Below, one piece after another: positions 30,100-40,525 of a stretch of DNA of 52,416 nucleotides. Source of the DNA: a virus (taxonomy: Duplodnaviria; Heunggongvirae; Uroviricota; Caudoviricetes); the IMG/VR virus record IMGVR_UViG_2896589216_000005. One strand, written 5' to 3'. Made by a program: the position numbers and the translations under genes. The notes below the pieces were generated by a model. It worked only from the letters and a program-made list of their open reading frames with translations, searched no databases and had not been told where the DNA came from. Position 1 is the first letter of the stretch. Each line of letters begins with the position of its first letter.

Positions 30100-30289
30100 A
30101 CTGCAGGCGCTGCGTCAGGCGCGCCTTGATTTATTAACCGGTAAACGGGTGGTGTCTGTCCAGAAAGATGGTCGCAGAATTGAATATACGGCAGCTTCTC
30201 TGGATGAGCTTAACCGGGCGATCAATGATGCGGAGTCGGTACTGGGGACAACCCGCCGTCGCCGTCGTCCGCTGGGAGTGAGGTTATGA
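30083..30289 (+). CDS. W: Head-tail joining protein W
   Basis: 68-aa ORF matching lambda gpW (GKRVVSVQKDGRRIEYTA). Confidence 0.88.
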   Translation: MVTVAELQALRQARLDLLTGKRVVSVQKDGRRIEYTAASLDELNRAINDAESVLGTTRRRRRPLGVRL

Positions 30290-31877
30290 AACGAACGCCT
30301 GTCCTGATTGATGTGAACGGCGTTCCGCTTCGGGAGAGCCTCAGCTACACCGGTGGCGGTGCAGGATTTGGCGGGCAAATGGCAGAGTGGTTGCCACCCT
30401 CGCAGAGTGCCGATGCGGCCCTGCTGCCCGCGTTGCGTCTGGGGAATGCCCGTGCAGATGATCTGGTGCGCAATAACGGAATAGCGGCCAATGCGGTGGC
30501 ACTGCATAAGGATCACATTGTCGGGCATATGTTTCTGATTAGCTACCGTCCGAACTGGCGCTGGCTGGGGATGCGGGAGACCGCGGCAAAAAGTTTTGTC
30601 GATGAGGTGGAGGCGGCCTGGTCAGAATACGCAGAAGGGATGTTTGGTGAGATCGACGTGGAAGGGAAACGCACGTTTACGGAATTTATCCGTGAAGGTG
30701 TGGGCGTTCATGCGTTTAACGGCGAAATCTTTGTGCAGCCGGTCTGGGATACGGAGAGTACGCAACTGTTTCGTACGCGTTTTAAAGCCGTGAGTCCGAA
30801 ACGGGTGGACACGCCAGGACACGGTATGGGGAACCGTTTTCTGCGGGCTGGTGTGGAGGTTGATCGATATGGCCGTGCCGTTGCGTACCATATCTGTGAG
30901 GATGATTTTCCTCGCTCCGGGAGTGGACGATGGGAACGGATCCCGCGTGAACTACCCACCGGGCGTCCGGCCATGCTGCATATTTTCGAGCCGGTGGAGG
31001 ACGGGCAGACCCGTGGAGCCAATCAGTTTTACAGCGTTATGGAACGGCTGAAGATGCTGGATTCCCTGCAGGCAACACAGCTTCAGTCGGCCATAGTGAA
31101 GGCGATGTATGCAGCGACGATTGAAAGTGACCTTGATACCGAAAAGGCCTTTGAATATATCGCCGGTGCGCCGCAGGGGCAGAAGGATAATCCGCTTATT
31201 AATATTCTGGATAAGTTCTCCACCTGGTATGACACGAATAGCGTGACGCTGGGCGGTGTCAAAATTCCGCACCTTTTCCCCGGTGATGATCTGAAACTTC
31301 AGACCGCGCAGGATTCAGACAATGGATTTTCGGCGCTTGAACAGGCGCTGCTGCGGTATATCGCCGCCGGTCTTGGCGTTTCCTACGAACAGTTGTCCCG
31401 TGATTACTCGAAGGTCAGTTATTCAAGTGCCCGCGCATCCGCCAATGAGTCGTGGCGCTATTTTATGGGGCGGCGAAAATTTATTGCGTCCCGGCTGGCC
31501 ACGCAGATGTTTTCCTGCTGGCTGGAAGAGGCACTTCTTCGGGGATTATTCGTCCGCCACGGGCACGTTTTGATTTTTATCAGGCGCGATCAGCCTGGTC
31601 ACGGGCTGAGTGGATTGGAGCCGGAAGAATGGCCATTGACGGGCTCAAGGAGGTTCAGGAATCAGTGATGCGCATTGAGGCCGGACTGAGCACGTATGAG
31701 AAAGAGCTGGCGCTGATGGGCGAGGATTATCAGGACATTTTCCGCCAGCAGGTCAGGGAATCTGCAGAGCGGGAAAAAGCCGGACTCTCACGTCCGGTGT
31801 GGATAGCGCAGGCGTATCAGCAGCAGATAGCGGAGAGTCGCAGGCCGGAAGAGGAGACAACACCACGTGAGACGTAA
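30286..31877 (+). pseudogene. B: Portal protein B, frameshifted (1-bp deletion in G-run at about 31541)
   Basis: Lambda gpB homology continues from frame of ORF 30286-31668 into ORF 31452-31877; switch at CTTCGGGGATT. Confidence 0.85.
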
Positions 31878-37622: not shown

Positions 37623-38062
37623 ACTTTGCCCTCAGACTGGCGCGTGAGATGGGGAGACCCGACTGGCGCGCCATGCTTGCCGGGATGACATCCACCGAAT
37701 ATGCCGACTGGCACCGTTTTTACCGTACGCATTATTTTCAGGATACCCAGCTGGATATGCATTTTTCCGGGCTGACGTACGCTGTACTCAGCCTGTTTTT
37801 TTGCGATCCGGATATGCATCCCTCTGATTTCAGTCTGCTTGTCCCCCGGCATGAGGAAGAGCAGGTGGAGAGGCCGGATGAGGACAAAATGCTGATGCAG
37901 AAAGCGGCAGGACTTGCCGGAGGCGTCCGGTTCGGTGGGGACGGAGGGCGCGATATTTTATCGTCTGCGGATGTGGCGGATGTCATGGTGGATGATGCCG
38001 CATTAATGATGGCTTCAGCGGGGATTCCGGGAGGTGTGAGATATGTCCCAGCCGGTTGGTGA
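37191..38062 (+). CDS. T: G-T fusion produced by -1 programmed frameshift
   Basis: The -1 frame (ORF 37649-38062) is open from the slippery site; conserved lambda mechanism. Confidence 0.7.
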
Positions 38063-40525
38063 TCTTGTTATTGACCTGAGTCTGGATGCTGTCCGTTTCG
38101 ATGAGCAGATGAGCCGGGTAAGGCGTCATTTTTCATGTCTGGATACCGACGCCAGAAAAACCGCCAGTGCTGTTGAACAGGGCCTGAGCCGCCAGGCGCT
38201 GGCTGCACAAAAAGCCGGGATTTCCGTCGGGCAGTATAAAGCGGCCATGCGAACCCTGCCCGCACAGTTTACGGATATCGCCACGCAGCTTGCAGGTGGT
38301 CAGAATCCCTGGCTGATCCTGCTGCAACAGGGCGGTCAGGTGAAGGACTCCTTCGGCGGGATGATCCCCATGTTCAGGGGGCTTGCCGGTGCGATCACCC
38401 TGCCGATGGTCGGGGTCACCTCGCTGGCGGTGGCGACAGGTGCGCTGGTGTACGCCTGGTACCAGGGAGATTCCACGCTTTCAGCGTTTAATAAAACCCT
38501 GGTTCTTTCCGGTAATCAGTCCGGACTGACTGCCGATCGTATGCTGACTCTCTCAAGAGCCGGGCAGGCAGCAGGGCTGACGTTTAACCAGGCGAGAGAG
38601 TCACTGGCAGCCCTGGTGAATGCCGGTGTGCGTGGTGGTGAACAGTTTGATGCCATCAACCAGAGTGTCGCGCGTTTTGCGTCTGCATCCGGTGTGGAGG
38701 TGGATAAAGTCGCTGAAGCCTTCGGGAAGCTGACCACTGACCCGACGTCGGGACTGATGGCGATGGCGCGCCAGTTCCGTAACGTGACGGCAGAGCAGAT
38801 TGCGTATGTTGCACAGCTGCAGCGTTCCGGAGACGAGGCCGGGGCATTGCAGGCGGCGAACGATATCGCCACGAAAGGCTTTGATGAGCAGACCCGTCGC
38901 CTGAAAGAAAACATGGGAACACTGGAGACCTGGGCGGATAAAACAGGGAAGGCATTCAAATCGATGTGGGATGCCATTCTGGATATCGGTCGTCCTGAAT
39001 CCTCAGCGGATATGCTCGCCAGTGCGCAGAAGGCATTTGATGAGGCGGATAAAAAATGGCAGTGGTACCAGAGCCGGAGCCAGCGCCGGGGAAAGACCTC
39101 CTCTTTTCGTGCGAACCTTCAGGGGGCATGGGATGACCGGGAAAATGCCCGTCTGGGTCTGGCAGCGGCCACGCTGCAGTCGGATATGGAAAAAGCCGGT
39201 GAACTGGCGGCAAGGGACCGGGCTGAGCGTGAGGCGTCACAGCTGAAGTATACCGGAGAGGCGCAGAAGGCGTATGAGCGCCTGCAGACGCCGCTGGATA
39301 AATATACCGCCCGTCAGAAAGAGCTGAATAAGGCCCTGAAAGACGGAAAAATCCTGCAGGCGGATTACAACACGCTGATGGCGTCGGCAAAAAAGGATTA
39401 TGAATCGACGCTGAAAAAGCCGTCAGGTGTGAAGGTGTCTGCCGGTGAGCGCCAGGAAGACCGGGCGCATGCAGCCATGCTGGCGCTTGAAACCGAGCTC
39501 AGGACGCTGGAAAAACACAGCGGTGTGAATGAGAAAATCAGCCAGCAGCGCCGGGATTTATGGGAAGCGGAAAATCAGTATGTGGTCCTGAAAGAGGCCG
39601 CCACGAAACGGCAGTTATCTGAGCAGGAAAAATCCCTGCTGGCCCATGAGAAAGAAACGCTGGAGTACAAACGCCAGCTGGCTGAGCTGGGCGACAAGAT
39701 TGAACACCAGAAACGGCTGAATGAGCTGGCACAGCAGGCGGCGCGGTTTGAACAGCAGCAGAGCGCGAAGCAGGCGGCAATCAGCGCAAAAGCACGCGGA
39801 CTCACCGACCGTCAGGCGCAGCGGGAGTCGGAAGAGCAGCGCCTTCGTGAGGTGTACGGTGATAATCCGGCTGGGGCGAGTGGGCGGAAAGTGCGACGGA
39901 CAGTTTTTCGCAGGTTAAAAACGCGGCCACGCAGACCTTTGACGGTATTGTACAGAATATGGCAGCGATGCTGACCGGCAGCGAACAGAACTGGCGTGGT
40001 TTCACCCGTTCTGTGCTGTCCATGCTGACAGAGATTTTTCTGAAGCAGGCGATGGTGGGGATAGTCGGGAGTATCGGCAGCGCCATTGGCGGGGCTGTTG
40101 GTGGCGGCGCATCCGCGTCAGGCGGTACAGCCATTCAGGCTGCGGCGGCGAACTTCCATTTCGCGACCGGGGGATTTACGGGGACGGGGGGTAAATATGA
40201 ACCTGCGGGGATTGTTCATCGCGGGGAGTTTGTCTTCACGAAGGAGGCGACCAGCCGGATTGGCGTGGGAAATCTTTACCGGCTGATGCGCGGCTATGCC
40301 ACCGGCGGTTATGTCGGTGGCACCGGAAGTCCGGCGCAAATGCGGCGTTCAGAGGGTATCAGATTTGAGCAGAACAACAACGTGGTGATTCAGAACGACG
40401 GTACGAATGGTCTGCCAGGTCCACAGATGCTGAAGGCAGTGTATGACATGGCCCGCAAGGGTGCCCGTGATGAAATTCAGGCACAGATGCGCGATGGTGG
40501 TCTGTTCTCCGGAGGTGGACGATGA
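38043..40525 (+). pseudogene. H: Tape measure protein H, frameshifted (1-bp deletion in G-run at about 39874)
   Basis: Lambda gpH homology moves from ORF 38043-39974 to the frame of ORF 39959-40525 near CTGGGGCGAG. Confidence 0.85.

Follow-up and report, generated by a model that had tools for sequence, protein, structure and literature searches.

Two of the three interrupted morphogenesis genes in this prophage, the portal gene B and the head protease/scaffold gene C, very probably owe their one-base G losses to undercalls in an unpolished PacBio consensus, while a deletion in the tape-measure gene H and a +1 insertion near the end of C are real lesions of an ordinary defective prophage. The window, by which we mean the whole 52,416-nt stretch of DNA that was analyzed, matches exactly a part of the record CP026832.1, in which the genome of Shigella dysenteriae 14 ATCC 49346 (= E22383) was assembled from PacBio data only. 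The prophage it contains is lambdoid, combines a phage-21-type head with a lambda-type tail, and adjoins trpABC. All features described below lie on the plus strand.

The original prediction was that B, C, and H are each broken by a single-base deletion in a G-run, and that these breaks fit sequencing or assembly undercalls at least as well as genuine pseudogenization. The division of each gene into two overlapping open reading frames (ORFs) agrees with the coordinates in the ORF list of the window. The undercall explanation held for B and C, where Illumina data restore both Gs, and failed for H and for the remnant of a second tfa gene, whose lesions are real. The further suggestion that the prophage may be more intact than it appears applies to the portal and most of the protease/scaffold, and not to H, the shared C-terminus of C and Nu3, or the IS insertions.

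Same-strain short-read data and other comparison material

ERR5984632 is an Illumina data set for strain E22383, S. dysenteriae 14, from project PRJEB44801, and the strain list of Yassine et al. 2022 (PMC8795385) gives E22383 as the identical strain to ATCC 49346. We compared this run as its automatic Logan assembly, not as reads. Against positions 29961-40860 of the window (10,900 bases), the ERR5984632 contig has 0 substitutions and only 2 gaps, one of them an extra G in B and the other an extra G in C. Resequencing by an orthogonal chemistry had been proposed as a check on the broken genes, and the Illumina assembly provides it by restoring exactly these two Gs. The same contig shares with the window both the +1 at 33310 in C and a 91-nt deletion in H. 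Base-by-base alignment of B, C, and H used as intact relatives phage 21, PhiR57_1, and Escherichia coli MFDS1016424, the last of which differs from the window by 44 substitutions over 3714 aligned bases.

As described in Yassine et al. 2022 (PMC8795385), the 59 Shigella PacBio genomes of Kim et al. 2018 were never polished with short reads and contain numerous homopolymer indels; the same paper gives 163 cgMLST allele differences for ATCC 49346/E22383. The ShigaPass paper reports that ATCC 49346 differs at its CRISPR locus from the E22383 stock of the Institut Pasteur. The two stocks are separate sub-cultures, and mutations private to the ATCC stock are possible in principle.

The portal and protease/scaffold genes

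B (30286..31877) has a match to PF05136 and is a portal gene of the lambda gpB/phage 21 gp4 type, with 96.8% nucleotide identity to the phage 21 portal region. In the record it consists of two overlapping ORFs, 30286..31668 (460 aa) and 31452..31877. The one-base loss predicted near 31541 was borne out by the alignment, in which the G4 run at 31541..31544 corresponds to a G5 in the ERR5984632 assembly and in every intact relative. Restoring one G yields a full-length 530-aa ORF that is identical to the portal of the ERR5984632 assembly and equal in size to the portal ORF of phage 21 and E. coli prophages, as expected of a lambda-type portal carrying PF05136. Records of the truncated 460-aa product come solely from CP026832.1 and CP026825.1, both of them closed PacBio chromosomes. 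Judging by these alignments, B in the real DNA is an intact 530-aa gene and its missing G a consensus undercall.

C (31867..33338), identified by PF01343 (Peptidase_S49) and the annotation of phage 21, is recorded as overlapping ORFs of 278 aa (31867..32703) and 276 aa (32508..33338), and the nested Nu3 start, an ATG at 32769, is conserved. Here too the loss placed around 32497 was recovered on alignment with the intact relatives: the G3 run at 32497..32499 is a G4 in the ERR5984632 assembly and in all relatives, including the PacBio genome CP026825.1. With one G restored, C becomes a single 490-aa ORF identical to that of the ERR5984632 assembly; a 260-aa fragment of C has been recorded for CP026832.1 alone. 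The same kind of comparison indicates that this single-G loss is also a consensus undercall and that C in the real DNA is one 490-aa gene.

C carries a second lesion that the original prediction did not include. An extra A at 33310 turns the GGGGGG of 501-aa alleles into GGGGGAG (33305..33311), replaces the last 20 residues of both C and Nu3 with 9 others, and moves the stop codon from about 33372 to 33338, giving the 490-aa allele, which ends in ...AAVQGERVTGVRRR as compared with ...AAVQGGVSQASEDGDADVKMLMAMP in the 501-aa form. The insertion is common to assemblies L011, L029, L031, and L032 and to CP026825.1. No complete E. coli genome matched the 80 nt around 33310 at an identity of at least 99%, the best matches listed covering 79 nt. 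Because the extra A is found in the same-strain Illumina assembly and in other fragmented or read-based assemblies, we regard it as real. The gene retains the S49 domain and the internal in-frame Nu3 ATG of the gpC/Nu3 arrangement with its shared C-terminus altered, and the new C-terminus might impair scaffold function.

In their arrangement, these genes follow the head genes of phage 21 and lambda closely, with the same order Nu1-A-W-B-C(Nu3)-D-E. Across B and C the nucleotide sequence is 96.8% identical to that of phage 21, the two ends of B fall at matching relative positions, and the internal Nu3 ATG is kept. A difference is that the C/Nu3 allele here encodes 490 rather than 501 aa, with the shared C-terminus rewritten by the +1.

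Long-read and short-read records compared

Differences in the length of G/C runs divide the available records by how they were sequenced. At the two sites in B and C, the longer runs (G5 and G4, respectively) are present in nine further comparators, including 7 drafts or read assemblies. Eight fragmented drafts differ from the window by 2-61 substitutions, and the sole difference between them and the window in a G/C run of 4 or more is an extra G at 43124. In comparison, over 19 kb the PacBio sister genome CP026823.1 has 13 substitutions and 8 G/C runs (length 4-6) that are one base shorter than in the window, and CP026825.1 has about 9 such runs. Outside one divergent segment, all 1-nt differences in the sister PacBio genomes fall in G/C runs of 4-7, with the PacBio genome shorter. 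The same sites (31541, 34518, 39122, 41640, and 47515) were struck in several independent PacBio genomes, which suggests that the errors depend on context and are not random. G/C runs of at least 4 make up 2.2% of the bases in 27300-52416, and the three 1-nt losses confined to closed PacBio-series records (B, C, and 43124) all lie in such runs, which chance (about 1e-5) does not explain. The window contains 3-4 suspect sites in 52 kb, a number that agrees in order of magnitude with the 163 cgMLST loci genome-wide.

The distribution of the B lesion can be set against that of the H deletion. The H deletion groups the window with the same-strain Illumina assembly. The G4 run in B groups the window with the PacBio genome CP026825.1, which still has the 91 nt in H. 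Taken by itself, the B G4 common to CP026825.1 could be read as inheritance. These two distributions are incongruent, as sequencing technology would account for and descent would not.

Very probably, the PacBio consensus undercalled short G-runs, and with no short-read polishing B and C were left falsely split. The features of the three sites are those of homopolymer undercalls in general. Each run is shorter in the long-read record (G5 to G4 in B, G4 to G3 in C, and G6 to G5 at 43124); an orthogonal chemistry fails to show the losses in B and C, the same-strain Illumina assembly having both Gs; and the assembly belongs to a set that Yassine et al. 2022 describe, for the Kim et al. genomes, as unpolished. 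The same 1-base losses in G/C runs of 4-7 are known as homopolymer indel errors from PacBio RS-era long-read-only assemblies (the Kim et al. 2018 set), where they are always in the direction of a shorter long-read record, are missing from same-strain short reads, and turn genes into apparent pseudogenes. Nothing essential is different here. Tools to repair gene-fragmenting indel errors exist (e.g., PMC12007338).

True pseudogenization would hold that all of the lesions are real, with the G losses in B and C produced by slippage during replication once the H deletion had inactivated the prophage. Homopolymer slippage is a real mutational mode, a defective prophage is under no selection against such changes, the ATCC and Pasteur stocks differ at least at the CRISPR locus, and the B G4 recurs in CP026825.1. 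Nevertheless, we consider this very unlikely to be the case. The same-strain Illumina assembly has both Gs and matches the window over 10.9 kb with 0 substitutions; no read-based or draft assembly on record has a truncated product of B or C; the sister PacBio genomes differ likewise at many G/C runs, always being the shorter; the genome set is unpolished according to the published account in Yassine et al. 2022; and the distribution of the B G4 conflicts with that of the H deletion. That real slippage mutations also favor homopolymers is a consideration against the artifact reading.

A narrower form of this idea, to which we give marginally less credence still, is that the B and C losses are real and recent slippage events that occurred only in the ATCC 49346 stock and that the Pasteur stock lacks. 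If that were true, a prophage that was already dead would have been caught in the course of further decay driven by homopolymers, and the recurrent G-run losses in Shigella chromosomes would be mutational hot spots, not sequencing bias.

The tape-measure gene

H (38043..40525) has matches to PF06791 and PF09718 (TMP_2 and Tape_meas_lam_C) and is present as two overlapping ORFs, 38043..39974 (643 aa) and 39959..40525 (188 aa). The predicted one-base loss in a G-run near 39874 did not survive alignment, since the GGGG at 39873-39876 has the same length in all relatives. A homopolymer loss was rejected for this gene in favor of a 91-nt deletion (30 codons + 1 nt) 8 nt upstream, between two copies of TCCGGCTG, an 8-bp direct repeat of which a single copy is retained at the junction (39866..39873). 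H is 857 aa in relatives. Of the 643 aa in the first piece here, 607 are native codons and 36 are out of frame. The alignment to lambda H runs in one frame over residues 1-605 and in another over 635-853, and residues from about 606 to 634 are missing.

Relatives from the Shigella lineage keep the 91 nt in 11 of 11 cases, as do the E. coli and phage references that were compared; among the sequences compared they are missing only in the window and the ERR5984632 assembly. The exact 643-aa and 188-aa products are likewise on record only in CP026832.1 and ERR5984632. The distribution of this junction was taken from exact-protein look-ups; in matches of an 80-nt nucleotide query to complete E. 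coli genomes the gap of 91 nt is bridged, so that a single-piece match does not stand out. H does not, then, belong to the class of homopolymer undercalls, being a 91-nt deletion that is also in the Illumina assembly.

The two parts of H have 76-88% amino acid identity to lambda gpH, occupy the same place between T and M, and carry the same TMP_2 and Tape_meas_lam_C domains. Lambda gpH is one continuous ORF over both domains, unlike the split here into 643 and 188 aa, in which about 30 codons and 1 nt are gone between the 8-bp repeats and the reading frame is lost for the C-terminal quarter. The deletion has the classic footprint of slippage or illegitimate recombination between short direct repeats, here TCCGGCTG, and it shifts the frame after codon 607. 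In-frame H deletions reportedly give shorter tails, in work by Katsura and Hendrix; the present deletion is out of frame. We infer that H has lost its function, and a phage with no tail would form no infectious particle.

The opposite extreme, that H and the C +1 are also assembly errors and the prophage is intact and inducible, draws on the demonstrable indel errors in the record and seems to us hardly credible. The independent same-strain Illumina assembly has both the extra A at 33310 and the 91-nt deletion, three more assemblies of the fragmented or read-based kind contain the +1, the loss of 91 nt between 8-bp repeats differs in kind from a homopolymer undercall, and an IS1 and two IS2 copies interrupt the prophage.

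Other frameshift sites and insertion sequences

The late operon contains a natural programmed -1 frameshift site, the GGGAAAG slippery heptamer at the end of G (37598..37604), which is the same heptamer in the same place as in lambda G/T and serves as an internal control for a real frameshift. That the G-runs in B and C are themselves functional slippery sites, used for programmed ribosomal frameshifting or transcriptional slippage as in G/GT, is suggested by this genuine site in the same operon and has next to no probability, since B and C are single ORFs with one more G in the intact relatives and in the same-strain Illumina assembly, the split arrangement is not conserved, and G4 and G3 are not known as efficient slippery motifs. 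A programmed -1 frameshift was rejected for both genes on the grounds of their single ORFs in relatives and the same strain, 37598 being the only such site.

The run at 43124..43128, absent from the original prediction, is a G5 within a short 98-aa ORF (42909-43205) that lies between I and J; all draft assemblies have a G6 there, which gives 112 aa. Only 3 contigs are recorded with the 98-aa product, all from NCBI and none read-based, 2 of which are closed PacBio-series chromosomes. This is probably a third undercall, judged from the split between drafts and PacBio records; the ERR5984632 contig compared does not reach 43124. Elsewhere, in 5100-12182 and 15798-23572, comparison with relatives of about 98.5-99% identity gave no further G/C-run discrepancies.

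An IS1 and one IS2 copy sit in the early region of the prophage. IS2 copy 1 (13203..14533, 1331 bp) has full-length orfA and orfB. IS2 copy 2 (23572..24901, 1330 bp) lies between nanS-p and the holin gene S, an insertion relative to assembly L022, and does carry the 1-bp deletion attributed to it, with CC at 24011-24012 where copy 1 has CCC, beside a G4 run. The variant OrfA that it encodes has been recorded solely in NCBI entries, on 3 contigs with lengths up to 4.8 Mb. Since short-read assembly collapses IS copies, this distribution is uninformative on the change from CCC to CC.

What had been noticed as a second tfa copy with a 1-bp deletion is only a C-terminal remnant (51941..52128, 63 codons), which has lost one T near 52096. 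The loss, from GCACCTGAT to GCACCGAT, lies outside any homopolymer, and the identical sequence occurs in draft assemblies L017, L020, and L021 and in CP026807.1. A homopolymer artifact does not account for it, and by this comparison the second tfa is a case of real, old decay.

State of the prophage and implications

A functional lambdoid prophage would have intact morphogenesis genes and an uninterrupted late operon; here H is broken and IS2 sits between nanS-p and S. The real lesions comprise the H 91-nt deletion, the C/Nu3 +1, the IS1 and IS2 insertions, and the decayed second tfa. In this the element resembles the defective lambdoid prophages of Shigella and E. coli, such as the IS-riddled remnants Rac, DLP12, and Qin, with IS1/IS2 insertions, a structural-gene deletion, a tfa remnant, and retained cargo (lom and nanS-p). 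In comparison with these K-12 remnants, the prophage here is much less decayed, the whole int-to-tfa gene set still being present. As read from its genes, it is defective yet less decayed than the record suggests.

The homopolymer problem of this genome set is already in print, in Yassine et al. 2022 (PMC8795385), and our results add no new biology to it. Their value is mainly as a caution that pseudogene content is overstated in CP026832.1 and its sister genomes, so that prophage intactness calls or pseudogene counts taken from them will be wrong. Polishing with the existing Illumina data is needed before these genomes are used for the analysis of gene decay in Shigella. For this prophage, the true inactivating lesions, as far as the compared sequences indicate, are the 91-nt deletion in H, with a presumed loss of function, the C-terminal frameshift of C/Nu3, which may impair it, and the IS insertions.

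Prophage organization

Scanned against Pfam and compared with annotated phages, the window proves to carry a complete lambdoid prophage. Gene order starts with int (1-1131, minus strand) and proceeds through a Rac-like immunity region, O/P, Q, a DNA methylase, nanS-p and S/R/Rz to the head genes (Nu1, A, W, B, C(Nu3), D, E, FI and FII), the tail genes (Z, U, V, G, T, H, M, L, K, I and J) and then lom, stf, tfa, a methyltransferase and a tfa remnant, with trpABC immediately past the window end. The prophage is interrupted by IS1 (about 4300-5050) and by IS2 (copy 1, 13203-14533; copy 2, 23572-24901). 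Its head genes share 96.8% DNA identity with phage 21, with identities of about 98.6-98.8% for the nearest complete E. coli prophages. The immunity region (6402-7649) is of the Rac type rather than the lambda cI/cro type: a short HTH repressor (135 aa, minus strand) faces a gene with a YdaT domain, and in the closest relative from E. coli dicB lies upstream. Two long minus-strand ORFs, of 434 aa (36548-37852) and 585 aa (44243-46000), are antisense to V/G/T and J, respectively.

Single-base losses in B and C

The original prediction held that the portal gene B, the protease/scaffold gene C and the tape measure gene H are each broken by a one-base deletion in a G-run, possibly through systematic undercalling. 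All three split ORF pairs appear in the ORF map, and the frame jumps are genuinely present in the record, but such a loss occurs only in B and C. In base-by-base alignments with intact relatives, B has G4 at 31541-31544 instead of G5, and C has G3 at 32497-32499 instead of G4.

By exact-protein look-ups the window belongs to CP026832.1, which the literature identifies as the PacBio sequence of ATCC 49346, a Shigella dysenteriae 14 strain among the 59 genomes of Kim et al. 2018. Yassine et al. 2022 (PMC8795385) reported that the genomes of this set had received no short-read polishing and contain numerous homopolymer indels. They paired ATCC 49346 with E22383 (SD14), with 163 cgMLST allelic differences, and their strain table gives E22383 as Illumina run ERR5984632 (project PRJEB44801). 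Assembly of these reads yielded a 13.5-kb contig of the same prophage, which matches window positions 29961-40860 with 0 substitutions over 10,900 aligned bases and exactly two gaps, one additional G in the B run and one in the C run. This contig encodes a B of 530 aa and C as a single 490-aa ORF, and adding one G per site to the window yields exactly these two proteins. All 9 further head-region copies, 7 of which are drafts or read assemblies, likewise carry a B run of G5 and a C run of G4. Two closed PacBio chromosomes are the only records with the truncated 460-aa B product, and CP026832.1 is the only one with the 260-aa C fragment. Programmed frameshifting at these sites was rejected, as relatives and the same strain encode B and C as single ORFs. 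The genuine programmed frameshift of this operon is at the G/GT slippery heptamer GGGAAAG, which is conserved at 37598, and the B and C sites are of another kind. The suspicion of undercalling is thus borne out for B and for C at 32497: in the real prophage B is intact at 530 aa, and C is a single 490-aa ORF that keeps the Nu3 start at 32769.

Real changes in H and C

The Illumina data, which already provide the resequencing by an orthogonal chemistry that the original prediction called for, identify the break in H and a second change in C as real. Near 39874 the G-run of H has the same length as in relatives; what is absent is 91 nt (30 codons + 1) between two copies of TCCGGCTG, of which one remains at 39866-39873. 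Lambda H residues 1-605 align up to 39869 and residues 635-853 align in another frame from 39866, the reading frame shifting after codon 607. The ERR5984632 contig carries the same deletion, splitting H into 643 + 188 aa, and these exact fragments were found only there and in CP026832.1; all 11 relatives covering the site have the 91 nt. The deletion may have arisen by slippage at the flanking 8-bp direct repeats or by illegitimate recombination between them.

The change in C, which the original prediction did not list, is an extra A at 33310 (region 33305-33311) that converts the GGGGGG of 501-aa alleles to GGGGGAG. With it the stop lies at 33338 instead of about 33372, and 9 new residues (...AAVQGERVTGVRRR) replace the last 20 of the 501-aa allele. 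Undercalling does not account for this insertion, as the same A is in the ERR5984632 contig; it is common to several short-read Shigella-lineage assemblies, and of the 9 further head-region copies 3 have it. A search of 5,426 complete E. coli genomes with the 80 nt around 33310 gave no match of at least 99% identity, and the best E. coli matches listed were 79 nt, without the extra base. Judged by these sequence comparisons, the 490-aa C/Nu3 is a genuine allele that was found nowhere but in this Shigella prophage lineage.

The "second tfa", said to carry a one-base deletion, is a 63-codon C-terminal remnant. One T is indeed gone, outside any homopolymer; the remnant sequence recurs in three draft assemblies and therefore represents real, old decay, undercalling being the wrong reading here. 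As claimed, IS2 copy 2 lacks one base of copy 1 (CCC to CC at 24011-24012, beside GGGG), a difference on which short-read assemblies are uninformative because IS copies collapse there. This copy is inserted exactly between nanS-p and holin S, inside the late operon; in one compared record (L022) nothing interrupts this arrangement.

Base losses follow sequencing technology

Among near-identical copies, the sister PacBio genome CP026823.1 has, in 19 kb, 8 G/C runs of length 4-6 that are one base shorter than in the window, against 13 substitutions. CP026825.1 has about 9 such runs (length 4-6) and, in the head region (27284-34669), five run-length differences (runs of 4-7) versus one substitution. 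Fragmented drafts differ from the window by 2-61 substitutions, their sole difference in a G/C run of at least 4 being an extra G at 43124. Since G/C runs of at least 4 make up only 2.2% of bases, the placement of the losses is not due to chance. Real slippage could favor the same runs, and placement alone cannot separate it from error. The two are told apart by how the losses divide between technologies and by an incongruence between sites: the H deletion unites the window with the same-strain Illumina data, whereas G4 in B unites it with another PacBio genome that retains the 91 nt.

The run at 43124-43128, a loss that the original prediction did not list, is G5 in the window and G6 in all draft assemblies, so that the conserved small ORF at 42909-43205, between I and J, has 98 rather than 112 aa. 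Only three recorded contigs have the 98-aa version, all from NCBI and none read-based, and two of them were identified as closed PacBio-series chromosomes; this is likely a further undercall. No more G/C-run discrepancies were found in 5100-12182 and 15798-23572 against relatives about 98.5-99% identical. The 3-4 suspect sites in 52 kb match, in order of magnitude, 163 affected cgMLST loci genome-wide.

Roughly 3.6 kb past the window end, the housekeeping gene trpC (about 22735 in L014, the CP026832.1 record) shows a C6-to-C5 loss. The gene is split into 217 + 160 aa in CP026832.1 and CP026825.1 and is whole (453 aa) in CP026807.1 and one draft assembly. An artefact of the same type is the probable cause, though the loss could be a real Shigella auxotrophy lesion.

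Comparison of the window with five sequence records (L009, L013, L015, L044 and L045) showed G-runs at 31541, 34518, 39122, 41640 and 47515 shortened in several independent closed genomes, which suggests either consensus errors that recur in certain sequence contexts or real mutations that these genomes share. The 39122 run is shortened in CP026823.1, CP026825.1 and CP034935.1, with H split 400 + 476 aa in all three. Between Rz and Nu1, a T8/T9 run at 27546 (T9 in records L028, L030 and L034) varies among read-based and draft assemblies; where the head region aligns well, no other homopolymer-length polymorphism was seen among the assemblies not made with PacBio.

Implications

The finding is an assembly artefact overlying an ordinary defective prophage, and the underlying problem of the Kim et al. 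genome set is already in print. From established lambda biology, a prophage missing full-length tape measure would build no tail and hence no infectious particle. The altered C-terminus, common to protease and scaffold, may impair procapsid assembly, and IS2 between nanS-p and S could block late transcription or be polar on it. Before CP026832.1 and its sister records are used to call pseudogenes or prophage intactness, they need to be polished with short reads.
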